The notes below the pieces were generated by a model. That model worked only from the letters and a program-made list of their open reading frames with translations, did no database searches and was not told the DNA's origin. A DNA stretch of 64,000 bases from Candidatus Saccharicenans sp. (GTDB lineage: Bacteria; Acidobacteriota; Aminicenantia; Aminicenantales; Saccharicenantaceae). How positions within the stretch are numbered: position 1 is the stretch's first letter; each line of letters starts with the position of its first letter. The translations under genes and the position numbers were made by a program. The DNA lies in assembly GCA_024653215.1 (NCBI GenBank), contig JANLFU010000010.1, positions 19,625 through 83,624 of the forward strand. The letters are read 5' to 3'. This document shows positions 21,934 through 63,808 of the stretch, piece after piece.

Positions 21934-22573
21934 TCTTAACCTCCTTTGAGATGTGCTGAATATTATTCGAATTTTTGAATTAATTGCAACTGGTTTTTTT
22001 AGCCCGGCAGGCCGGGTTCAGATACGGAAAACTTCAGGTGTTTAAAGCAGACAGGCGGGGTATTCCTGGCCCGTACAGAGGCCGGGCTGGATGACAGGAC
22101 ATGATTGTTCCTTTATTAGGATAATCCAGGCGAAACCCGAGAGAGTGCCCTTACAGGCCAGAGGCACGATTCAAATCCCACTCCAACCATCCGGAAACGA
22201 TCTCCTGCCCCGGCCAGTTCTTTAATTCTTAATTTTTTCTATTAAGTTTTCTTGTAAGCCTGCTCGTCTTTTACTTGACAGGGATAGACCAAAAGTTTAA
22301 TTTAGAAGCATAGCGGGAGGCCAATACAGAGAAACCGGGGATGGGTAAGTATTGCTTTTTGAAGCCGTGTCCTGTCCTGCACGGGAAGAATTCCGCATCC
22401 AATGGCCCGAATCCATGCATCCCGGCAATCCCTTGTATTTTTATCGGAATAGTAGGATAATGGAAGAGTCATGACAGCCGACAGGATTGACCGGCGACCT
22501 GAGATAAACACCAGGCCCGGTTTTCATAACCGGATTAGACCTGACTCAATAGTAACCAAAAAGGAGGCTTGAT

Positions 22574-22813
22574 ATGTCCGAACTTACACCAGATGTCACC
22601 CTCGATAACAGCGGGCTGGCCTGTCCCATGCCAATCATCAAGACCAAGAAGGCCATCGACGGGATGCAAGTCGGCCAGGTGCTGAAGATGATCGCCACCG
22701 ACCCCGGTTCCATCCCCGATGTCCAGGCCTGGGTCAGCAAGACCGGTCATGAACTTCTGAAGCATGAAACCGAGGGCAACAGGTTCATCTTCTACATCCG
22801 CAAGACAAAATAA
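22574..22813 (+). CDS. tusA: TusA-family sulfur carrier protein.
   Basis: LDNSGLACPMPIIKTKKAI contains the CPxP active-site cysteine motif of TusA/SirA. 79 aa. GGAGG RBS. Confidence 0.85.
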   Translation: MSELTPDVTLDNSGLACPMPIIKTKKAIDGMQVGQVLKMIATDPGSIPDVQAWVSKTGHELLKHETEGNRFIFYIRKTK

Positions 22814-23056
22814 CAGCCGTCAGGGAAGACCTGTCTTCCCCGGCCCTTAGCATAAAAGCCCCGGGCTGAAGGAGAGCTAAGAGTGGTGGGACTCAAGCGG
22901 GAGGCTTTTTTCGGAAAGCCGGTTAATCCCTCTCTGCCGGGAATATTTTTCAATCCGAACTATCCCACACGATACTTACCCCTTACCACCACAAACCATT
23001 TCAGCCACCCGTCTCGGAATTTAAGTCAAGCTAACTTCAAAAAAGGAGGATAAATA

Positions 23057-23530
23057 ATGCCTGAAGGAAAAAAGAGACTGGCCATCATCTGCCTGCACGG
23101 CAGTCTTGACGTGGCCTTTGCCACCTTCGTCCTGGCCACGGCCGGGGCCGCCATGGAAATGGAGACCGCCGTTTATTTTGCCTTCTACGGGCTGGAAGTC
23201 CTCAAGAAGGGGAAAATCAACAAGCTCAAGGTTTCACCGCTGGCCAACCCGGCCATGCCGGTGAAAATTCCCAACATCATTGCCATGCTGCCCGGGATGA
23301 CCGCCGCGGCCACGGCCATGATGAAATCCTGGATGAAAAAATCCAAGGTGGCCACCCTGGGCGAACTGCTGGACACGGCCCGGGAACTGGGCGTCAGGCT
23401 TATTGCCTGCCAGATGAGCATGGACGTCATGGGGATCAAGAAGGAAGACCTCATAGACCGGGTTGAAATCGGCGGGGCGGCTACCTTCCTGGAATTTGCC
23501 AGCCAGGATGCCATCACCCTGACCTTTTAG
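23057..23530 (+). CDS. DsrE/DsrF-family sulfur-transfer protein (DsrE-like 1).
   Basis: DsrE/DsrF fold signature (LAIICLHGSLD..., conserved Cys in IACQMS). AGGAGG RBS. Confidence 0.7.
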   Translation: MPEGKKRLAIICLHGSLDVAFATFVLATAGAAMEMETAVYFAFYGLEVLKKGKINKLKVSPLANPAMPVKIPNIIAMLPGMTAAATAMMKSWMKKSKVATLGELLDTARELGVRLIACQMSMDVMGIKKEDLIDRVEIGGAATFLEFASQDAITLTF

Positions 23531-23539
23531 GAGGAAGCC

Positions 23540-23908
23540 ATGGCCGACGATAAAATCCTGATCATCATGACCAGTGGCCCGGACACACCCCGGCGCTGTG
23601 CCACACCCTTTTTCTTTGCCACTCTGGCCACCGCTATGGATTATGATGTCACCATGTTCTTCACCATTGACGGAACCCTGCTGCTCAAGAAAGGTCTGGC
23701 CGATACAGTTTTCCCCAAGGAAGGAGGCAAATCGGTCGGCGAATTCCTGAAAGAGGCCATGGACTCCGGGGTCAAGATGACCGCCTGCACCGCTTCCCTC
23801 GAACTTCACGGCCTGAGCCCGGAAGACCTGATTCCCGAGGTCAAGATGGTCGGTGGAGCTTCCATGTGGCAGATGGCCGAGGAAAGTAAGACTGTCTTAA
23901 CTTTCTGA
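23540..23908 (+). CDS. DsrE/DsrF-family sulfur-transfer protein (DsrE-like 2).
   Basis: ILIIMTSGPDTPRRCATPFFFA with a conserved cysteine. The 9-nt spacing from the previous gene indicates translational coupling. Confidence 0.7.
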   Translation: MADDKILIIMTSGPDTPRRCATPFFFATLATAMDYDVTMFFTIDGTLLLKKGLADTVFPKEGGKSVGEFLKEAMDSGVKMTACTASLELHGLSPEDLIPEVKMVGGASMWQMAEESKTVLTF

Positions 23909-23930
23909 GCGAATCAAAAAGGAGGAAACC

Positions 23931-24377
23931 ATGGCCATAATTCGCGGCTGTAACCTTCCCGAAGACCTCTACTATTACCCGGAAAAGCACCTGTGGCTAA
24001 AGCCGCTCGGTGGAAACCTCTTCCGTATCGGACTGACCCCCATCGCCGGAAAACTGGCCGGCGGTAAACTTAACGCAGTAACCATCAGGTCCAAGAACAT
24101 CGGCCAGGAAGTCCAGCATGGGAAAAGCCTGGCCACCCTGGAGAGCAGCAAGTACGTGGGTCCGGTGCCGGCTCCCATTACCGGCATCGTCAAGTCTGGA
24201 AACGACAGGCTGGCCGCCGACCCCAACCTGGTCATCAGCGACCCTTACGGCGAAGGCTGGGTGGCCGAGATCGAAGCCACGAAGTGGGACCAGGAAAAAG
24301 CTGCCCTGCTGACCGGGGCTGAAGGCCTGGCCGAATACGAAAAGAAACTGGCAGCGGCCGGGATCTCCTGCGGGTGA
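23931..24377 (+). CDS. GcvH-like lipoate-binding protein (LbpA-type) that is not part of a glycine cleavage operon.
   Basis: YYYPEKHLWLK matches the GcvH EHEWV motif, and TLESSKYVGPVPAPITGIV matches the lipoyl-lysine motif ESVKAxxDxYxPxxGxV. No gcvT/P is nearby. Confidence 0.75.
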   Translation: MAIIRGCNLPEDLYYYPEKHLWLKPLGGNLFRIGLTPIAGKLAGGKLNAVTIRSKNIGQEVQHGKSLATLESSKYVGPVPAPITGIVKSGNDRLAADPNLVISDPYGEGWVAEIEATKWDQEKAALLTGAEGLAEYEKKLAAAGISCG

Positions 24378-24456
24378 TATTTTTTGGGTGCGCTGGAAGA
24401 TTAAAAATTAAAGTTTATAAATCGCGAAAAAATAATTCCTTCGCCAAGGAGGGCAA

Positions 24457-25608
24457 ATGAAGGAAAAAACGATTTATGAGCACTTGAGGGAAAAGGGGCT
24501 CTCCCGGCGGGACTTCATGAAACTCTGCGGCACCATTGCCGGTATGATGGGCCTGGAGTTCGTACCGCCGGTCAAAGCCCTGGGCAAAACACTCGGACCG
24601 AGCCCGGAAGAAGTGGTGGCTCAGGCCCTTAAGACCAAGCCGAAAGTTCCCATCATCTGGCTGGAGTTCCAGGACTGCGCCGGGTGCAGCGAAGCCATCT
24701 CCCGCTCCAGCTCTCCCCTTCTCAGCAACCTGGTCCTAAATGACATTGCCATCGAGTACCACGAAACCCTGATGGCTGCGGCCGGCTTCCAGGCCGAGAA
24801 GGCCAAGGAAGAATGCATGAAGAAATACTTCGGGAAATACGTGCTGGTGGTTGAGGGCAGCCCTACCCTGGCCGATGACGGCATCTACTGCACCGTGGCC
24901 GGAAAAAGTAACCTGGACCTGCTAAAGGAAGCTGCAGCCGGGGCTGCTGCCGTCATCGCCACCGGAAACTGCGCCTGCTTTGGCGGAATCCCGGCAGCCC
25001 ATCCCAACCCGACCAGGGCCGTCGGCGTGGCCGACCTCATCAAAGACAAACCCGTGGTCAACATACCGGGCTGCCCGGCCATTCCTGAAGTTACCACCGG
25101 AACCATACTCCATTTCCTCATCCTGGGCCAGTTGCCTGAGACTGACCAGCTGAAAAGGCCTTTGCCCTTCTATGGCCACACGGTTCACGACCACTGCCTG
25201 CGCCGGCCATTCTACGAAGCCGGAAAATTCGCCGGAAGCTTCGACGACGAAGGAGCCAGGAAAGGCTATTGTCTTTACCGACTCGGTTGCAAGGGCCCGA
25301 CCACTTACAATGCTTGCGCCGGCCTGAAGTGGGAACGCGGCCTTTCCTATCCCGTTCAATCCGGCCACCCCTGCCTCGGCTGTTCCGAGCCTCATTTCTG
25401 GGATGGCGGCGGCTTCTACCAGGGTCAGTCGGCTCCAATCGTACGGCTTGATAAAAGTTCCACGGCCACCCTGGTCGGAGTCGGCGTGGCGGCCGGGGCC
25501 GCCCTGGCTGGCCTCAACGCTGTCAAGAAGAGCCGGGCCAAAAAGGATCTGAAAAAAGATCAGTCTCAGGCCGCCGGGTCTGATCCCGGGTCAAAGAAGG
25601 AGGGCTGA
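24457..25608 (+). CDS. hynS: [NiFe] hydrogenase small subunit, TAT-exported, with a C-terminal membrane anchor.
   Basis: Twin-arginine signal SRRDFMKLCG. Fe-S cysteine clusters (CAGCSEA, GNCAC, CPAIPE, GCKGPTTYNACA, CLGCSEP). A C-terminal hydrophobic helix. Confidence 0.9.
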   Translation: MKEKTIYEHLREKGLSRRDFMKLCGTIAGMMGLEFVPPVKALGKTLGPSPEEVVAQALKTKPKVPIIWLEFQDCAGCSEAISRSSSPLLSNLVLNDIAIEYHETLMAAAGFQAEKAKEECMKKYFGKYVLVVEGSPTLADDGIYCTVAGKSNLDLLKEAAAGAAAVIATGNCACFGGIPAAHPNPTRAVGVADLIKDKPVVNIPGCPAIPEVTTGTILHFLILGQLPETDQLKRPLPFYGHTVHDHCLRRPFYEAGKFAGSFDDEGARKGYCLYRLGCKGPTTYNACAGLKWERGLSYPVQSGHPCLGCSEPHFWDGGGFYQGQSAPIVRLDKSSTATLVGVGVAAGAALAGLNAVKKSRAKKDLKKDQSQAAGSDPGSKKEG

Positions 25609-25609
25609 G

Positions 25610-26287
25610 ATGAACTGGACGAATATCTTGAATTTCAGCCGCGGGCCACTGCTTCATGTGGCCATGATAATTTTCGTGGCCGGCCTGAGCTACCGGCTGG
25701 TCCGGGTTCTTTTGCTCGGCTGGGCGAGAGACAGGGCTAAGAACAAGGGCAGCAAGCTCTGGGGGGTAATCGTCAATTACCTGAAGGGCCTTTTCGTCCT
25801 GCCGTTTATTCCCTGGGTCAGGCGCACCTTCCGCCACAACGAGCTGACCTTTATCGCCGGCGGGCTGTTCCACCTCAGCCTGTTCCTGGTCCTGGTTTTC
25901 GGCACGGCCCATATTTTAGTCTGGAAGAGCCTCTGGGGTTTCGGCTGGAAGGGCCTGCCAACGCCCATCCTGGCTTTCTTCTCGGCCGCGGGCATAATTT
26001 CCATGATTGTCCTGCTGATAAACCGGCTCACCCACCCGGTGTTAAAAATGCTGACCAGGTTCCCGGTCTGGATAAACTGGCTGGTGGTTTTCCTGCCGAT
26101 GATAACCGGCTTCATCATGGCCAGGCACCTGTGGTTCAGGTACGAGGTGATTTTCAGCCTGCACCTGATTTCGGTCAGCCTGCTTCTAATCTGGGTTCCC
26201 TTCGGCCGCATCTCCCACTTCCTGTTTTACTTCTTTTCCAAGACCATCCACGGAGCCCAGGCTGGTAAGCGCGCGGTAACGCCCTGA
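25610..26287 (+). CDS. isp1: Isp1-like di-haem cytochrome b membrane subunit (NarI/DsrM-like).
   Basis: 225 aa with 5-6 TM helices and conserved His in the helices. Its position between hynS and an HdrD-like gene matches the Isp-type hydrogenase architecture. Confidence 0.65.
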   Translation: MNWTNILNFSRGPLLHVAMIIFVAGLSYRLVRVLLLGWARDRAKNKGSKLWGVIVNYLKGLFVLPFIPWVRRTFRHNELTFIAGGLFHLSLFLVLVFGTAHILVWKSLWGFGWKGLPTPILAFFSAAGIISMIVLLINRLTHPVLKMLTRFPVWINWLVVFLPMITGFIMARHLWFRYEVIFSLHLISVSLLLIWVPFGRISHFLFYFFSKTIHGAQAGKRAVTP

Positions 26288-26301
26288 AAAGGAGGCAAGC
26301 C

Positions 26302-27567
26302 ATGAAAAGCCAGAAAACGCAATCAGCCATAAACACCTACCTTAAGGAGACAGGTGGCTGGGTGGCCAGTCAGCTTGAGGCCTGTACCCGCTGCGGCATC
26401 TGCGCCGAAGCCTGCCATTTCTACCAGGCCCTGGGCAATCCAGAATATGCTCCCATCTGGAAGCTGGAGCCGCTGCGCCGGGCCTATGAGCAGCGCTTCA
26501 CGGTGGCCGGCAAGCTGAAATTAGCCCTTGGCCTGGAGAAAAAGCTCGCCGACTCCGACCTGGAACACTGGAGCAAAATCGTCTACGAGGCCTGCACCGT
26601 CTGCAACAAGTGCGCCCATGTCTGCCCGATGGGCATCCAACTCGGGCCACTGATTCACGGGGTCAGAGCCGGGATGGCTGCGGCCGGAGTGGTGCCCGCG
26701 GACCTGGCCGAAGCCACGGAGAAGCAGAAAACCGTCGGCAGCCCGCTGGGGGTTACCGACGAAATGTGGCGGGAAAGAATCGACTGGATCACCGACGAAT
26801 GGGAAGCTCAAATACCAGTTGATAAGGCCGGGGCCGAGAGCCTGGTAGTTTTCACCTCAATTGAGCTTATGAAATTTCCGGATAACCTGGCCGCGGTGGC
26901 CAGGATTCTCAACAGGGCCGGAGAAAACTGGACGGTGAGCTCAACCGGCCGGGAAGTGGTTAACTTCGGCTACTTTGAAGCCGACGAGGAGCTGACCAGG
27001 CTTTTCATGTACCGGGTCTTCAAGGCGGCCGAGGAGCTGGGCGTCAAGCGGATCATCATCAGCGAATGCGGTCACGCCTACGACGCTTTTCGCTGGGCAG
27101 CACCCAACATGATGAAAGTTCCAAAGGGAGTGGAAATCGCCCACATCAGCGAGTACATCCACCAGCTCTGGAAGACCGGCCGGATCAAGCTCAAAGAAGG
27201 AGCCTTTGACGGGGAGACCATCACCTTCCACGACTCCTGCAAAATTCAGCGCCGCGGTGGCATCATCAAGCAGCCGCGGGAGCTGCTCAGGGTACTGGCT
27301 CCCAGGAGTTTCAAAGAAATGACGCCCAACAAGGAGCAGTCCCTGTGCTGCGGCGGCGGGGGCGGTGTCATCTCCATCAAGGAAGCCGACGCCAACCGCT
27401 ATGCCGTCTTCGAGATGAAAATTGAGCAGCTCCAGGAAGTCCAGGCCAGGGCCGTCTGCATGGTCTGCAGCAACTGCCGTTTGCAGTTCGTGGACAGCGT
27501 GGGGCATTTCAACCTGCCGGTAAAAGTCCACGGCCTGGCCGAGCTGGTTTCCAAGGCCCTGGTTTAA
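26302..27567 (+). CDS. isp2: Isp2-like HdrD/DsrK/GlpC-family Fe-S protein with a CCG domain.
   Basis: Two ferredoxin-like CxxCxxCxxxCP motifs (CTRCGICAEACHF; CTVCNKCAHVCPMG), plus CCG-domain cysteines (SCKIQ...CCGGGGG; CMVCSNC). Confidence 0.75.
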   Translation: MKSQKTQSAINTYLKETGGWVASQLEACTRCGICAEACHFYQALGNPEYAPIWKLEPLRRAYEQRFTVAGKLKLALGLEKKLADSDLEHWSKIVYEACTVCNKCAHVCPMGIQLGPLIHGVRAGMAAAGVVPADLAEATEKQKTVGSPLGVTDEMWRERIDWITDEWEAQIPVDKAGAESLVVFTSIELMKFPDNLAAVARILNRAGENWTVSSTGREVVNFGYFEADEELTRLFMYRVFKAAEELGVKRIIISECGHAYDAFRWAAPNMMKVPKGVEIAHISEYIHQLWKTGRIKLKEGAFDGETITFHDSCKIQRRGGIIKQPRELLRVLAPRSFKEMTPNKEQSLCCGGGGGVISIKEADANRYAVFEMKIEQLQEVQARAVCMVCSNCRLQFVDSVGHFNLPVKVHGLAELVSKALV

Positions 27568-27582
27568 GGAAAGGAGGGGAAA

Positions 27583-27903
27583 ATGGCATCCTTTAATCTT
27601 ACCCCGGTGGAAAAAGGAATCCTCAGGTGCCGTCACACCGGCCCCTTTACCCCTGAGGACATTCAATCCCTGACGGTTTTCTTCAGGGAATACCACGGCA
27701 AGCTGCTGATAGACCTCAGCGGAACTGACCCGTCCGAATGCCTGCGGCACATCAGGCACATGAGGCCGATCATGCCAACCGCGGCCATTTTCGGGGCCGA
27801 AATAGACCCCAAAATTCTGGAGATAGACCGCAGTTACTACGCCAACGAGGTGCGCTGGTTCCGGACCGAAAAAGAAGCCCTGGAATGGCTTCGCAACCAG
27901 TAA
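27583..27903 (+). CDS. Hypothetical 106-aa protein inserted between isp2 and hynL.
   Basis: Strong RBS (GGAGGGG) and tight spacing in the operon. No recognisable family. Confidence 0.5.
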   Translation: MASFNLTPVEKGILRCRHTGPFTPEDIQSLTVFFREYHGKLLIDLSGTDPSECLRHIRHMRPIMPTAAIFGAEIDPKILEIDRSYYANEVRWFRTEKEALEWLRNQ

Positions 27904-27918
27904 TGGGAGGAGGACAAA

Positions 27919-29658
27919 ATGGCTAATCGAATCGTCATCGATCCTATAACCAGGATAGAAGGTCACTTAAGGATTGAAGCCGCGATCGATGGGAACAACA
28001 CCATCACCGAGGCCTACTCGGCTGGAACCATGGTTCGCGGCATCGAAAACATCCTGAAGAAGCGCGACCCGCGCGATGCCTGGGCCTTTGCCCAGAGAAT
28101 CTGCGGGGTTTGCACCACGGTCCATGCCATTGCCTCCATCCGGGCGGTAGAAGACGCGCTAGGCATAAACATTCCTAAAGCAGCCAACCTGATGCGAAAC
28201 ATGATCATCGCCCAGCAGTACATCCATGACCACGTGATGCATTTCTACATCCTGCACGCCCTGGATTTCGTGGACGTGGTCAGTGCCCTGAAAGCTGACC
28301 CGAAGAAAACCTCGGACATCCAGCAGAGCATCTCCGGCTGGCCCAAATCCTCCCCGGCCTACTTTGCCGAGGTCCAGAAAAAGGTTCAGGCCATCGTCGA
28401 TAGCGGCCAGCTATCGCTTTTCAGCAATGGCTACTGGGGGCACCCGGCCTACAAGCTCCCGCCGGAAATCAACCTGCTGGGCGTGGCTCACTACCTGGAG
28501 TGCCTGGACTGGCAGTCACAGGTGACCAAGATCCACACCATCTTCGGCGGCAAGAACCCGCATCCCAACTTCGTGGTGGGAGGGGTGCCGCTACCCATTG
28601 ACATGAACTCGGACCAGGCCCTGAACGCCGAGAAGCTGGCGGTGATAGCCGATTCCATCAAGAGGATGAACGACTTCGTTGACCAGGTTTACCTGCCGGA
28701 CCTGCTGGCCGTGGCTCCCTATTACCTGGAATATGCGGCGGTCGGCGAAGGGTTGGGTAATTTCCTGGCCTGGGGGGAATTTCCTGAAGGGCAGCTCAAC
28801 GAAATTGATAAGCTGATTTTCCCCAGGGGTGTCATCGTCAACCGTGACCTGAAGAACGTTATCGTGCCCGACCCGAGAGATGCGGCCAGGATGAAAGAAT
28901 TCATCACCCATAGCTGGTATAAGTACAGCCAGGGCGACGAAACGGGCCTGTTTCCCTGGGAAGGCGAAACAGTCTTTAATTACACGGGTCCAAGACCGCC
29001 TTACGAATACCTCAACGTCGAGGGCAAGTATTCCTGGTTGAAATCACCCCGCTGGAACGAGCTGCCGATGGAAGTCGGCCCCCTGGCCCGGGTGCTGATT
29101 CTTTATGCCACGGGGCACAAGGAGACGGTTGCCCTGGTCAACGCCGTTCTGGAAAAGCTCAGGGCTCCGGTCAGCGCCGTGTTTTCGACGCTCGGACGGA
29201 CGGCGGCCAGGGCCATTGAGACCAAGGTCATCGCCGGGCTGCTTCAGAAGTTCTATGACGAGCTGGTGGCCGAGATTAAAGCCGGAAACACCGACACCTT
29301 CAACGACGAAAAATGGGAGCCCCGGACCTGGCCGAAGAAGGCGCTCGGTTTCGGCTATACCGAGGCGCCGCGCGGAGCCCTGGGGCACTGGGTGGTGATA
29401 GAGAACAGGAAAATCAAGAATTACCAGATAGTGGTGCCGACCACCTGGAATGCTTCGCCCCGCGACCACAGGAACCAGGCCGGCGCCTATGAGGCTTCGC
29501 TGGTCGGAACTAGGCTGGCCAACCCCGAACAGCCGCTGGAGATTCTACGGACGCTTCATTCCTTCGACCCGTGCCTGGCCTGCGCCGTGCACCTGGTCGA
29601 CACCAGCGGGAAGAAGGTCGGAGAAGCGGCCACCGGCTTTAACCTGGTTGTCCGCTGA
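27919..29658 (+). CDS. hynL: [NiFe] hydrogenase large subunit.
   Basis: N-terminal RIEGH and RICGVC (CxxC) motifs. C-terminal DPCLACAVH (DPCxxCxxH), followed by a 21-aa extension that is the expected substrate of the maturation endopeptidase. Confidence 0.92.
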   Translation: MANRIVIDPITRIEGHLRIEAAIDGNNTITEAYSAGTMVRGIENILKKRDPRDAWAFAQRICGVCTTVHAIASIRAVEDALGINIPKAANLMRNMIIAQQYIHDHVMHFYILHALDFVDVVSALKADPKKTSDIQQSISGWPKSSPAYFAEVQKKVQAIVDSGQLSLFSNGYWGHPAYKLPPEINLLGVAHYLECLDWQSQVTKIHTIFGGKNPHPNFVVGGVPLPIDMNSDQALNAEKLAVIADSIKRMNDFVDQVYLPDLLAVAPYYLEYAAVGEGLGNFLAWGEFPEGQLNEIDKLIFPRGVIVNRDLKNVIVPDPRDAARMKEFITHSWYKYSQGDETGLFPWEGETVFNYTGPRPPYEYLNVEGKYSWLKSPRWNELPMEVGPLARVLILYATGHKETVALVNAVLEKLRAPVSAVFSTLGRTAARAIETKVIAGLLQKFYDELVAEIKAGNTDTFNDEKWEPRTWPKKALGFGYTEAPRGALGHWVVIENRKIKNYQIVVPTTWNASPRDHRNQAGAYEASLVGTRLANPEQPLEILRTLHSFDPCLACAVHLVDTSGKKVGEAATGFNLVVR

Positions 29659-30020
29659 AGCTGCACACAATCTAGGTTTAAGAAGTGATTGGACGGCCAA
29701 GAGCTTGAAACGCCGGGACTGGCCCGTTAACCAGGTGAATCATAATTCCGGAGGAGTAAGAGCACAGACCGGGCACTGGCAACGGCAGATGATAGAAACG
29801 TTTGAAAAATTGAAGATATCTAACCGAAAAAGAACAAACGGCCCGGTTGGGGTTCCAGCCCTTCAGGGACAAGACGCTGTTCAGAAAACCGCCTTATTCC
29901 AGGACGGCCACAAATGGCAGGTAGCTGCTAACCTGGGTAAAACTGGCGTGCGGTCAGCTGTCCGGACCAGAAAGAAGCGGCAGTCACAACGTGTCGTCAT
30001 GGGGACGAAACCTATTAGAT

Positions 30021-30040
30021 ATATGAATGGTTATTCATAT
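30021..30040. promoter_or_regulatory. Perfect palindrome ATATGAA-N6-TTCATAT in the hynL-hynD intergenic gap; candidate transcription-factor operator.
   Basis: 7-bp inverted repeat with a 6-bp spacer, 38 nt upstream of the hynD start. The same half-sites and spacing recur at 58481..58500. Confidence 0.45.
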
Positions 30041-30077
30041 GTCCTGAAACTGGCCGAATCTGAGGGCAGAAACTGAA

Positions 30078-30569
30078 ATGACCAAGAGAATTGTGGTGCT
30101 TGGAGTGGGAAACATCCTGAACCGGGATGAAGGAGCGGGAGTGCAGGCCCTAAAAGAACTGGAAAAAATTCTACCCGCTGGCCTGAAGCCGAAGGTTGAG
30201 CTGGTAGATGGCGGGGTGCTGGGGATGGACCTTCTCCCCTACGTGGAACGGGCCACTCACCTGCTCGTCCTGGATGCGGCGGATTTCCAGGGCCGGCCGG
30301 GAGAAATCCGGGAGTTTCCGGGAGGGGCGCTAAAAACATTTTTCTCAGGCAAGATTTCCTGGCACCAGCTCGGCTTCCAGGAGGTGCTGGAAGTAGCCCG
30401 GGTCAGAGGGCACTATCCGGGACAGGTTCACCTGATCGGCGTTCAGCCGGGGGACATGGAAGTCGGACTGGGCTTAAGCGAAGCTCTGGAGCTTTCCGTG
30501 AAGGACATGGCCAGAAGGGCCCTGGATATACTGAAAAACTGGCTCGAAGATACTGACCATGCAGGATAA
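30078..30569 (+). CDS. hynD: Hydrogenase maturation endopeptidase (HyaD/HybD/HynD family).
   Basis: IVVLGVGNILNRDEGAG ... LLVLDA is typical of the family. 163 aa. Confidence 0.8.
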   Translation: MTKRIVVLGVGNILNRDEGAGVQALKELEKILPAGLKPKVELVDGGVLGMDLLPYVERATHLLVLDAADFQGRPGEIREFPGGALKTFFSGKISWHQLGFQEVLEVARVRGHYPGQVHLIGVQPGDMEVGLGLSEALELSVKDMARRALDILKNWLEDTDHAG

Positions 30570-30906
30570 ATTCCGGAGGATTACCCCTCAAATAAAAATG
30601 TTAACTTGCACCATCTACAGGTCCAGGACCAAGTACAGGAAACAGAAGAGTCACCATGCGCTTCAGGTTCAAGTGGCAGCAAGAATCCTGCCTGTGCGAA
30701 GTCTTAATCAAAGGCTTCTGGCCTTTACCAGATATTCAGCTCCAGAAACCCGAACTCTGAAGCCTGGATTGAGGCATTAATAAAACAAATTTCCGAGGGA
30801 TTGATTTATAAAACTAAATAAGGCAAAAAAGGCATTAATTACCAAAATGGGGCTAATCAAAAAACAAACGATAAATCATCTTAAGGACCTGGAAAGGAAA
30901 TAAAGG

Positions 30907-32007
30907 ATGGACGGGAATCATAGGAAAAGAATAAGGGGCATCGACCTGGGGGAAGTGCCGGCCGTTAGGTCGCAGACTTGCTACCATGCTGTCGGCTACG
31001 CCTTTGGACCCAAAACTCCTGATACCATCATCCTGGTCAGCCCCGCGAGTCCCTATGTCTGTGTCGGCTTCCACCAGGAAGCGGAGAGGGAAGTTGACCT
31101 GGAATACTGCCGGCAGGCCGGGCTGCCCGTCTACCGGCGCGAAGTCGGAGGCGGCGCTGTCTATCTCGACCGGAACCAGCTTTTCGTGCAGTGGATTTTC
31201 CACCCGGAAAGCCTGCCCCTCGAGCTTGAGGATAAATTCAGGTTCTACGTTGAGCCAATTATCCTCACCTACCGGGAGCTGGGAATTGAGGCCTCTTACC
31301 GCCCGGTTAATGACATCCACGTAGCCGGAAAGAAAATCGGAGGCACGGGCGCGGCCAGGATCGGCCAGGCGGACATCCTGGTCGGAAGTTTCATGTTTGA
31401 TTTTGATAAGAAAACGATGGCCAGGGTGCTCCGGGTTTCCTCAGAAAAGATGCGTGACAAGGTCTTCCAGAGCCTGGAGCAGTATATGACCACGATGAAA
31501 GAACTGTTGCCGGAACTTCCCGCCAGAGAGATTGTTAAGAGAATTTATCTGAATAAGGTGGCAGAACTGCTGGAAGCCGAAGTAGAGGCAGGCGGAATGT
31601 GCGAGGCAGAACTTCAAGAGGCGGAAAGGCTGGACCGCCTTTTCCAGAGCGAGGACTGGATTTTCCAGAAGGGACCGCTGCGCCGGCCTTCCGTCAAGAT
31701 CCACGAAGATGTCCACGTGCGCGAGGTGGATTATAAAGCTCCGGGCGGATTGATCAGGTTGACAGCCAGGATCAGGACGGAGGGCGGAAAACCGATCCTG
31801 GATTCGGTCTGGATTTCCGGCGACTTCACCGCCATTCCCAAGGAAGGTATATTCATCCTGGAAGATAGGCTGCGGGGTATTGCCATCGAGGAAAAAAGCA
31901 TCGGTGAAGCGGTCTGCCGGGCTCTTGGAGAATCGGGGCTGCAGTGTCCCGGACTGACAGAACAGAGCTGGATTTCTGCCCTGCTCAGGCTGACCGATTC
32001 CGGGTAA
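30907..32007 (+). CDS. lplA: Lipoate-protein ligase A family protein.
   Basis: HVAGKKIGGTGAARIG matches the LplA lysine-loop motif (GRKISGSAQ). 366 aa with a C-terminal accessory domain. Confidence 0.7.
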   Translation: MDGNHRKRIRGIDLGEVPAVRSQTCYHAVGYAFGPKTPDTIILVSPASPYVCVGFHQEAEREVDLEYCRQAGLPVYRREVGGGAVYLDRNQLFVQWIFHPESLPLELEDKFRFYVEPIILTYRELGIEASYRPVNDIHVAGKKIGGTGAARIGQADILVGSFMFDFDKKTMARVLRVSSEKMRDKVFQSLEQYMTTMKELLPELPAREIVKRIYLNKVAELLEAEVEAGGMCEAELQEAERLDRLFQSEDWIFQKGPLRRPSVKIHEDVHVREVDYKAPGGLIRLTARIRTEGGKPILDSVWISGDFTAIPKEGIFILEDRLRGIAIEEKSIGEAVCRALGESGLQCPGLTEQSWISALLRLTDSG

Positions 32008-63280: not shown

Positions 63281-63808
63281 ATGACCCAAAAGAACGGTAA
63301 GCCTGTTGATTCAGGCCAGGCGAGTCCCTTCAGCTCGAAAATTGACTATGAAGAACTCCGAAAGCTGATCTCACTCCTTGAAGAGAAAAACCTCACCCAG
63401 TTCGAGCTGGAAGTGGAAGGTTTCAAGATAAAACTGAGCCGCAGCCTGGGCAATTCGTCAGGCCCGGCCCAGGTGATGTTTACCCCGGCCATGCCGGAAG
63501 CCGCGGCCAAGATTATGGCCACCAACGGCGACATTCCCGCCCCGACCCCGGCTGAAGACAAGAACATACATTACGTGACTTCGCCCATGGTCGGAACCTT
63601 TTACCGGGCGCCTTCTCCCACCTCTCCCCCCTTCGTGGACATAGGCGATCCAGTCAAGAAGGGCCAGACCCTGTGCATCGTGGAAGCCATGAAGTTGATG
63701 AATGAGATCGAGTGCGACGTCAACGGCCTGGTAGTCGATATCCTGGTGGAAAACGGGAAACCGGTTGAATACGGGCAGAAACTCTTTGCCATCAAAGTGA
63801 GCGCCTGA
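63281..63808 (+). CDS. accB: Acetyl-CoA carboxylase biotin carboxyl carrier protein.
   Basis: [10 protein letters not shown] is the biotinyl-lysine motif. A Pro/Ala-rich linker. 175 aa. Confidence 0.88.

Follow-up and report, generated by a model that had tools for sequence, protein, structure and literature searches.

In a 64,000-nucleotide stretch of the genome of Candidatus Saccharicenans sp. (contig JANLFU010000010.1), here called the window, a 148-codon gene on the forward strand at 23931–24377 encodes a protein with the fold of GcvH, which is the H protein in glycine cleavage. We have high confidence, on grounds of sequence, that this protein is a lipoate-binding protein of the LbpA type and not an H protein of glycine cleavage, and we consider it probable that it is functionally coupled to the hydrogenase module encoded directly 3′ of it. 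The gene had been called an orphan in the initial annotation, a label that does not hold: it is the fourth of 11 genes in a same-strand cluster (22574–32007, + strand) that reads TusA-DsrE2-DsrE3-LbpA-HynS-Isp1-Isp2-p106-HynL-protease-lipoate ligase. In the model that we favor overall, with moderate confidence, LbpA acts in the cytoplasm as carrier for a composite respiratory module that has an Isp-type membrane-bound [NiFe] hydrogenase as its base. In the LbpA, sHdr, and recent hydrogenase literature, a search outside which most papers in subscription journals lay, we found no account that ties a hydrogenase to LbpA or to a module of TusA, DsrE, and ligase. Provisionally, what is new is the attachment of an LbpA-type carrier, a sulfur relay, and a ligase to an Isp-type hydrogenase in place of the sHdr system.

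The open reading frame (ORF) starts with an ATG at 23931, with a strong ribosome-binding site (AAGGAGG) 7 bases 5′, and stops at 24375–24377. It lies far beyond what chance would produce, as more than 1100 homolog clusters are found in the database and an identical public protein exists (MCR4410426.1, labeled ‘glycine cleavage system protein H’ and assigned to Candidatus Saccharicenans sp., which makes the source genome one of an Aminicenantes-type member of the Acidobacteriota). The initial annotation had this ORF and its two motifs right: EKHLWLK spans residues 18–24 and aligns with the KEHEWLR segment of E. coli GcvH, and the ESxK lipoylation motif reads LESSKYVGPVPAPITGIV, with Lys74 as the lipoyl-lysine. 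The Pfam family GCV_H matches the protein at 89.6 bits (cutoff 22.2), and its AlphaFold2 model (mean predicted local distance difference test, pLDDT, 72.7) aligns in Foldseek with the solved H-proteins 1ONL and 3A8J at template modeling (TM) scores of 0.75/0.86, which together describe a single-domain GcvH-like fold. The surroundings had also been read correctly. Two DsrE-family genes lie directly 5′ (23057–23530 and 23540–23908), hynS starts at 24457, 79 bp 3′, and profile scans of the window ORFs gave neither gcvT nor gcvP anywhere in the 64 kb. The TusA gene, the lipoate-protein ligase gene, and the cysteines Cys7 and Cys147 of LbpA had gone unmentioned.

According to Cao et al. 2018 (PMC6067878), LbpA proteins share a lipoyl-lysine and are set apart from GcvH by two conserved cysteines, of which one lies close to the N-terminus and the other, in many cases next to a glycine, close to the C-terminus. 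In the window protein, these cysteines are Cys7 (RGCNLP) and the penultimate Cys147 (GISCG). Cys7, Lys74 (in ESSK), and Cys147 are invariant in our alignment, and 120/120 of the homologs listed keep RGC[NDE]LP, ESSK[YF]VGP, and a cysteine in the last position or the one before it. To the hydrogenase-linked family we assigned 27 non-redundant loci (the window counted) with an LbpA-like protein at least 53% identical; a 28th locus is apparently frameshifted. Our comparison set held 105 GcvH-like proteins from 85 loci, all 105 with a lysine in the Lys74 column. A cysteine in the Cys7 column occurs throughout the family (27/27) and in the rest of the LbpA clade (38/38), a clade that takes in all of the sHdr-context LbpAs, and in none of the other proteins (0/40), E. 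coli GcvH included. A cysteine within the last 12 residues follows the same pattern (27/27, 36/38, and 0/40), which gives 65/65 N-terminal and 63/65 C-terminal cysteines for the combined LbpA clade (n = 65).

A bootstrapped neighbor-joining (NJ) tree (144 columns, 100 replicates), the sole tree method used, recovered the hydrogenase-linked family as monophyletic with 96% bootstrap, nested among LbpAs of sHdr context and apart from the Cys-less GcvHs. The clustering with canonical GcvH that the initial annotation had allowed for as the contrary outcome did not appear. The protein sides with the LbpAs, but it falls in neither published sHdr-linked group and belongs to a clade of its own, nearest the LbpA2-position and Etf-type first LbpAs. 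Two profile hidden Markov models were built with the family excluded, from 36 sHdr-context LbpAs and from 37 Cys-less GcvH-like proteins. The window protein scored 157.8 bits against the LbpA profile and 117.2 bits against the GcvH profile, and all 27 family members preferred the former by at least 37.5 bits. It also missed both NCBIfam GcvH cutoffs (TIGR00527, 64.6 vs 115.85; PRK01202, 90.7 vs 117). Its identity is 46% to the first LbpA of Etf-type sHdr loci, 42% to LbpAs in the LbpA2 position (an assignment inferred from the locus tags TK90_0638/0640), 34% to those in the LbpA1 position, and 36% to canonical GcvH. In a library of representatives at 50% identity, only 7/3432 GcvH-superfamily matches reached E ≤ 1e-30, which shows a compact family set well apart from the rest. 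The cysteine signature, the tree, the profile comparison, the missed NCBIfam cutoffs, and the operon content (ligase, TusA, DsrE2, and DsrE3) thus agree in supporting the LbpA class that had been proposed from the sequence. What the protein shares with GcvH is the fold, the lipoyl-lysine motif, and about 36% identity; it differs in missing the NCBIfam cutoffs, in its two extra conserved cysteines, in having no gcvT or gcvP neighbors, and in being encoded together with a ligase and sulfur carriers of its own. We rejected canonical GcvH identity on account of these cutoffs and cysteines, the profile scores, and the gene context.

LbpAs have been described as components of sHdr sulfur-oxidation systems (PMC6067878, PMC10332631). 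The Etf-type sHdr cluster of Alicyclobacillus tolerans (L032) comprises sHdrA, a CCG protein, EtfBA, EMO, two LbpAs, a ligase, and TusA/DsrE; the window operon has the same carrier and ligase half, with a hydrogenase in place of the sHdr half. The likeness to the sHdr LbpAs takes in the GcvH fold, the lipoyl-lysine, the N- and C-terminal cysteines (the latter Gly-adjacent), the TusA, DsrE2, and DsrE3 companions, a dedicated ligase of the LplA+LplB type, LipS1/LipS2 in some loci, the higher score on the LbpA than on the GcvH profile, and the 42–46% identity to Etf-type first and LbpA2-position LbpAs. The differences are as follows. The LbpA gene does not lie in or beside an sHdr cluster, as sHdrA/B/C, Etf, and EMO genes are absent from the 64-kb window and from the 10 kb around the LbpA gene in 27/27 loci; the window has no lipS gene either. 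The partner genes encode an Isp-type [NiFe] hydrogenase, each operon has one LbpA, the proteins form their own clade (96%), and most host lineages (Aminicenantes, Anaerolineae, Ignavibacteria, and Calditrichia) are not known to oxidize sulfur. At 34–50% identity, LbpA-like proteins come from sHdr loci of the Etf or sHdrA type, including those of Aquificaceae and Thermoplasmata, which have no hydrogenase, and at lower identity the matches are ordinary GcvHs.

The link to the hydrogenase is widely conserved. The 27 loci, collected with look-ups by protein identity and by scanning one genome for each species, come from at least six phyla by their record titles (Acidobacteriota, many Chloroflexota, Bacteroidota, Ignavibacteria/Melioribacteraceae, Calditrichia, and Acidimicrobiia), and one of the Chloroflexota carriers, Oscillochloris sp. 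ZM17-4, is cultured. In every one of them, hynS lies directly 3′ of the LbpA gene. By ORF clustering, LbpA, HynS, and DsrE-family proteins (59 copies) are found in 27/27 loci, Isp2 in 26, TusA and Isp1 in 25 each, HynL in 23, the protease in 22, the ligase in 18, and p106 in 15–16, some of the lower counts reflecting contigs or available sequence that end before the gene position. A gene for a PocR-domain/HTH_17 regulator precedes the operon in 21/27 loci (for example, L002 8590–9372) and is absent in the window, where a 640-bp intergenic region (21934–22573) lies 5′ of the operon and, beyond it, an outer-membrane beta-barrel gene on the opposite strand.

The genes of the window operon, all on the + strand, are packed with gaps of 1–79 bp in the core from dsrE2 to hynL; a promoter and terminator scan was uninformative, with counts at chance level. 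The first gene (22574–22813) encodes a TusA-type sulfur carrier of 79 residues (Pfam TusA, 89.9 bits), whose active-site Cys17 in a CPxP motif is invariant in 25/25 loci. It is followed by a DsrE2-type sulfurtransferase (23057–23530, 157 aa; Pfam DrsE_2, 156 bits; best PDB matches 3PNX and 2QS7) with Cys118 invariant in 25/25 loci and an NCBIfam DsrE2 score, 157.8 bits, that lies under the cutoff of 210. The next protein is a DsrE3-type sulfurtransferase (23540–23908, 122 aa; Pfam DsrE, 75 bits) with Cys83 and Cys20 invariant in 27/27 loci; its best PDB match, 3MC3, has been termed DsrE3A (PMC11094781). After LbpA comes HynS, the [NiFe] hydrogenase small subunit (24457–25608; TIGR00391, 413 bits, cutoff 179.5), with a twin-arginine translocation (Tat) signal and a C-terminal anchor (hydrophobic residues 335–356). 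Isp1 (25610–26287), putatively a di-heme cytochrome b of the DsrM/NarI superfamily, is a membrane protein with some five helices. It had no Pfam or PDB sequence match, and the assignment comes from HHalign, with 99.9% probability to classical Isp1 and 95.6% (E = 1.2e-8) to DsrM-like proteins; His88, His101, His173, His185, and His203 are invariant in 25/25 loci.

Isp2 (26302–27567) is a cytoplasmic HdrD/DsrK-like Fe-S protein with Pfam CCG and Fer4_8 domains and two ferredoxin motifs. Its best NCBIfam match is DsrK (224.7 bits, cutoff 400), then HmcF and TmcB, all under the equivalog cutoffs. PDB matches align its C-terminal CCG region to HdrB of methanogen heterodisulfide reductases, whose CCG domain carries non-cubane clusters that reduce disulfide, and 26/26 loci keep every one of its Fe-S and CCG cysteines. 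The small protein p106 (27583–27903, 106 aa) has a STAS/SpoIIAA fold (AlphaFold2 pLDDT 87.3; Foldseek matches to STAS proteins at TM scores of about 0.6) and invariant Cys16 and Cys53; its family counts 265 clusters only, nearly all labeled ‘hypothetical’, and occurs in none of the classical Isp loci described below. HynL, the large subunit (27919–29658; Pfam NiFeSe_Hases, 756 bits), is closest in PDB to 3MYR_B of A. vinosum (813 bits, the next match reaching 708). A hydrogenase maturation endopeptidase of the HycI/HynD family (30078–30569; Pfam HycI, 91 bits) and a 366-residue lipoate-protein ligase (30907–32007) end the operon. The ligase fuses an LplA catalytic to an LplB accessory part (Pfam LplA-B_cat, 132.5 bits; NCBIfam LplB domain at residues 275–353; PDB 1VQZ and 3R07_A/C over both domains) and is 43–54% identical to the ligases of the sHdr loci L032 and L035. 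By hydrophobicity, LbpA, TusA, DsrE3, Isp2, p106, and LplA are soluble, with no hydrophobic segments. Two wider gaps, of 420 bp between hynL and the protease gene (29659–30077) and of 338 bp before the ligase gene (30570–30906), hold no convincing ORF; an ORF at 29450–30076 is probably spurious, since it matches no family and runs over the end of hynL. In locus L006, the closest relative, the protease gene stands next to hynL.

By its gene order, the hydrogenase itself is of a known type. Isp-type (group 1e) enzymes are defined by the order hynS-isp1-isp2-hynL, with a b-type membrane cytochrome and an HdrD-like Fe-S protein (PMC11018855, PMC7735108), and the gene order of the window operon agrees with this definition. 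As controls, we used loci found with the A. vinosum HydL sequence taken from the PDB alignment, namely, a Thermochromatium-like contig, Thiocapsa sp. KS1, and Thioflavicoccus mobilis (L086–L088). All three read HupH-HynS-Isp1-Isp2-HynL, and none has TusA, DsrE, a GcvH-like protein, or LplA within 9 kb. The window enzyme resembles them in gene order, in a HynL nearest 3MYR, in a Tat-exported HynS, in an Isp1 with conserved histidines, and in a CCG-domain Isp2. It differs from them in that HupH lies 5′ in the classical loci with no TusA, DsrE, LbpA, or LplA there, whereas about half of the LbpA-linked loci have p106 between isp2 and hynL and one LbpA-linked Chloroflexi lineage has a formate dehydrogenase insertion. 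The divergence is uneven among the subunits. The window HynL is 61–62% identical to the classical ones, compared with 69–74% within the LbpA-linked loci across phyla, and HynS 52–53% compared with 61–70%. For Isp2 the values are 35–36% and 61–65%, and for Isp1 27–30% and 56–61%. It is therefore the electron-output pair, Isp1 and Isp2, that sets the LbpA-linked enzymes apart, as expected if this pair has a different cytoplasmic partner.

A pairing of LbpA with an Isp2-like protein is also found in loci with no hydrogenase. Two Chloroflexi loci (L041 6663–10441 and L040 4836–8788) encode TusA-DsrE2-DsrE3, a DsrM/NarI-like membrane protein, an Isp2/DsrK-like protein 36% identical to the window Isp2 (E = 1e-94), and an LbpA-like protein 39–41% identical to that of the window. 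The 253-residue membrane ORF of L041, which BLASTP matched at E = 0.007 only, is DsrM-like by NCBIfam and HHalign. This gene set appears to be a quinone-linked relative of the LbpA module, and it indicates that the pairing of a DsrMK-type module with LbpA is independent of the hydrogenase. There is a parallel with DsrMK(JOP) and DsrC of dissimilatory sulfur metabolism. DsrC is a small protein with a reactive cysteine at its extreme C-terminus, on which DsrMK acts. Both systems combine a membrane cytochrome b of the DsrM/NarI family and a cytoplasmic CCG protein with a small protein that has an extreme C-terminal cysteine and is fed by TusA/DsrE. They differ in that Isp2 stays under the DsrK equivalog cutoff (224.7 vs 400), that LbpA has the GcvH/lipoyl and not the DsrC fold, that there is no DsrAB, and that a hydrogenase joined in the complex serves as electron donor. 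We would read the likeness as one of working design and not of family membership. DsrC-family genes do occur near two hyn operons, about 1 kb 3′ of that of Thiocapsa (L087 11699–12058) and, together with a gene for an HmcF/DsrK-like CCG protein, 5–8 kb 5′ of the LbpA-linked operon of L001 (1505–1825 and 4405–5358), and may be relevant to the small-protein partners of Isp2-type subunits.

Variants among the 27 loci bear on the electron donor and on lipoylation. In one Chloroflexi lineage (L003 9978–14672 and L002 13696–18390), genes for a selenocysteine formate dehydrogenase (FDH-N) alpha subunit, a beta-like subunit, and FdhE lie between isp2 and hynL; the alpha subunit matches TIGR01553 at 1096 bits (cutoff 814) and has an in-frame TGA. 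Since this enzyme is inserted with no cytochrome b subunit of its own, the arrangement suggests that formate dehydrogenase and hydrogenase share Isp1 and Isp2 and that FDH-N adds a second periplasmic donor to the same Isp module. At the operon end of an Ignavibacteriaceae metagenome-assembled genome (MAG; L018 16207–19842) are a Cys-less GcvH-like gene, an LplA-LipS1 fusion (LipS1 236 bits, cutoff 230), and a LipS2-like gene (202, cutoff 270); that of a Chloroflexi MAG (L013 10107–12803) carries genes for a Cys-less GcvH-like protein, for LplA, and for a LipS1-like protein (224 bits, cutoff 230). An sLpl(AB)-LipS1/S2 lipoate-assembly pathway has been described for sHdr clusters (PMC10332631). 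The match of the LipS1/LipS2-type genes to its components, together with the ligase in the operon, leads us to infer that lipoylation matters to the operon.

We propose the following mechanism. The LplA+LplB-type ligase of the operon probably lipoylates LbpA on Lys74, and Cys7 and Cys147 are probably extra sulfur-binding or redox thiols. H2 would be oxidized in the periplasm by the Tat-exported HynSL, and the electrons would cross the membrane through the heme b of Isp1 to the cytoplasmic DsrK/HdrD-like Isp2. Isp1 alone can link the two sides, because HynS is exported (Tat signal and anchor helix) and the sulfur/lipoate module is cytoplasmic. The CCG-domain cluster of Isp2 would then contact lipoyl-LbpA and act on its dithiolane or persulfide, and sulfane sulfur would be exchanged between LbpA and TusA, DsrE2, and DsrE3. 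The net reaction that we favor would use H2 (and, in some Chloroflexi, formate as well) to reduce protein-bound sulfane sulfur to H2S and would separate charge across the membrane. H2-dependent S0 reduction has been described for the HydSL hydrogenase of Thiocapsa (PMC10892978), and this activity, together with the second periplasmic donor in L002 and L003, favors inward electron flow. Even so, our preference for the reductive direction is a narrow matter that stops just short of an even chance. It is also a tentative proposal, for which we would claim rather less than even odds, that lipoyl-LbpA is the physiological substrate of Isp2 and the operon a lipoate-dependent H2 (or formate):sulfane-sulfur oxidoreductase, in which LbpA takes the role that DsrC has for DsrMK.

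Several observations weigh against these proposals. The functional link of LbpA to the hydrogenase is drawn entirely from synteny and residue conservation, and sHdr, Dsr, or glycine-cleavage genes may be present elsewhere in the genomes and be served by LbpA. The NJ node that joins the family to the sHdr LbpAs is weak (29%, rising to 76% for a clade that also takes in three DsrE-adjacent GcvH-like proteins); deep LbpA/GcvH nodes were also weak in the study of Cao et al. (PMC6067878). A ligase match is lacking in 9/27 loci; in some of them the available sequence stops short of the ligase position, whereas others (for example, L014, L019, L021, and L023) have sequence past the protease gene yet no ligase. 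L002 and L014 have neither TusA nor DsrE2. In the hydrogenase-less L040 and L041, quinol-driven reduction of the lipoyl group would be endergonic by an estimate from standard potentials, which favors the oxidative direction there. Finally, anion-transporter genes lie in or beside three operons, of the TDT/TehA type in L019 (15376–16530) and L020 (10155–11264) and as TauE with DUF1634 in L001 (17333–18594). Their products may move sulfur species and could hint at an oxidized sulfur product.

The last two points belong to the alternative that fares best, namely, that flow is opposite or branched. The sulfane sulfur or dihydrolipoyl group of LbpA would be oxidized by Isp2 and the electrons passed through Isp1 to quinone, as proposed for sHdr/EMO, with hydrogenase and formate dehydrogenase as extra donors to the heme b hub, or with the hydrogenase venting surplus electrons as H2. 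We regard this as unlikely, if well short of far-fetched. The nearest LbpA relatives serve sulfur oxidation (PMC6067878, PMC11094781), flow to quinone would be favorable for the DsrMK-like pair with LbpA in L040 and L041, the TauE/TDT transporters stand beside three operons, and group 1e enzymes have been described as bidirectional (PMC7735108). On the other side, genes of the sulfur-oxygenating or sHdrA/B/C catalytic type are found in 0/27 loci, which leaves no evident route to sulfite, and the evolution of H2 from sulfane-sulfur oxidation would be thermodynamically unfavorable by our estimate. Many hosts have also been described as fermenting anaerobes, Anaerolineae for one and, in PMC10766756, Aminicenantes for another, which counts against oxidation too.

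It is quite improbable, in our view, that LbpA, TusA, DsrE, and the ligase work for a sulfur system (sHdr or another) whose genes lie elsewhere in the genome, and that they are only co-located or co-regulated with the hydrogenase in a lithotrophy island, with no direct exchange of electrons or sulfur with Isp2. Such a reading is consistent with the published LbpAs being sHdr components (PMC6067878, PMC10332631) and with the uninformative promoter and terminator scans. Against it, the gene order is kept in 27/27 loci, spread over at least six phyla and with protein identity down to 53–67%, the LbpA clade is context-specific, the divergence of Isp1 and Isp2 goes along with whether the module is present, the core gaps are 1–79 bp, and L040 and L041 pair an Isp2-like protein with LbpA where there is no hydrogenase at all. 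A service role for the module, as a sulfur relay for the assembly or repair of Fe-S clusters of the hydrogenase or as lipoyl-thiol protection and reactivation after oxidative damage, is very improbable. The maturation protease gene adjoins, hypA and hypB lie beside some of the operons, antioxidant roles are possible for lipoylated proteins (PMC10332631), and p106 has two invariant cysteines; but classical Isp and other group 1 enzymes mature with no such module, L040 and L041 keep it with no hydrogenase, and TusA, DsrE2, and DsrE3 are carriers of the dissimilatory type. That the protein is a genuine glycine-cleavage or lipoyl-relay H protein, next to a hydrogenase by chance, is the least credible reading, since the Pfam GCV_H match, the fold, the roughly 36% identity, and the public label are outweighed by both missed NCBIfam cutoffs, by LbpA-specific cysteines absent in 40/40 other GcvH-like sequences, by a 40-bit lead of the LbpA profile, by the dedicated ligase and sulfur carriers in the operon, and by the absence of gcvT and gcvP from the window and the related loci.

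From a biological perspective, an LbpA that serves as the cytoplasmic carrier of the Isp module would speak to a question open since the discovery of the isp genes, namely, the acceptor of Isp2. A structural-modeling study of 2024 still treated this acceptor as a matter of conjecture, ‘e.g. NAD+ or ferredoxin’ (PMC11018855), and a lipoyl carrier encoded in the operon with its ligase and a sulfur relay is a concrete candidate. If lipoyl-LbpA is the substrate of Isp2, the long-sought cytoplasmic acceptor would be named for one large branch of Isp-type hydrogenases. The dissimilatory role of lipoate and LbpA, so far known only from sHdr sulfur oxidation, would be widened by the hydrogenase-linked context and, on the same condition, would extend to H2-linked sulfur reduction in widespread anaerobes (Aminicenantes, Anaerolineae, Ignavibacteria, and Calditrichia). 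As the hosts of the operon are abundant and mostly uncultured anaerobes, what is inferred from metagenomes about H2 and sulfur cycling could be altered as well. There is also a practical side. Every named member of the 90% cluster of the window protein, and every other named homolog encountered, bears the label ‘glycine cleavage system (protein) H’ (NCBI or JGI), a mislabel that can lead metabolic reconstructions to credit Aminicenantes, Chloroflexi, and further groups falsely with glycine cleavage.

Other GcvH-like genes were met along the way. In Comamonas, Bordetella, and Rhizobacter (L058 9974–10845, L059, and L078), a Cys-less GcvH-like gene is directly followed by a DsrE-family gene. In the tree, the three proteins stand where the LbpA clade borders on ordinary GcvH; they may be another H-protein variant with no part in glycine cleavage. 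A tblastn search of a plasmid collection gave no member of the LbpA family; it returned nothing but canonical gcvH and an A. ferrooxidans plasmid gene labeled glycine cleavage system protein H, the alignment of which starts at residue 1. The other ORFs of the window encode sugar-active enzymes, a GTPase, a helicase, SRP54, and similar proteins. Among them is the sole other biotin/lipoyl-domain ORF (63281–63808, + strand), unrelated to LbpA, which is an ordinary biotin carboxyl carrier protein of acetyl-CoA carboxylase with the motif EAMKLM (TIGR00531, 171 bits, cutoff 115).

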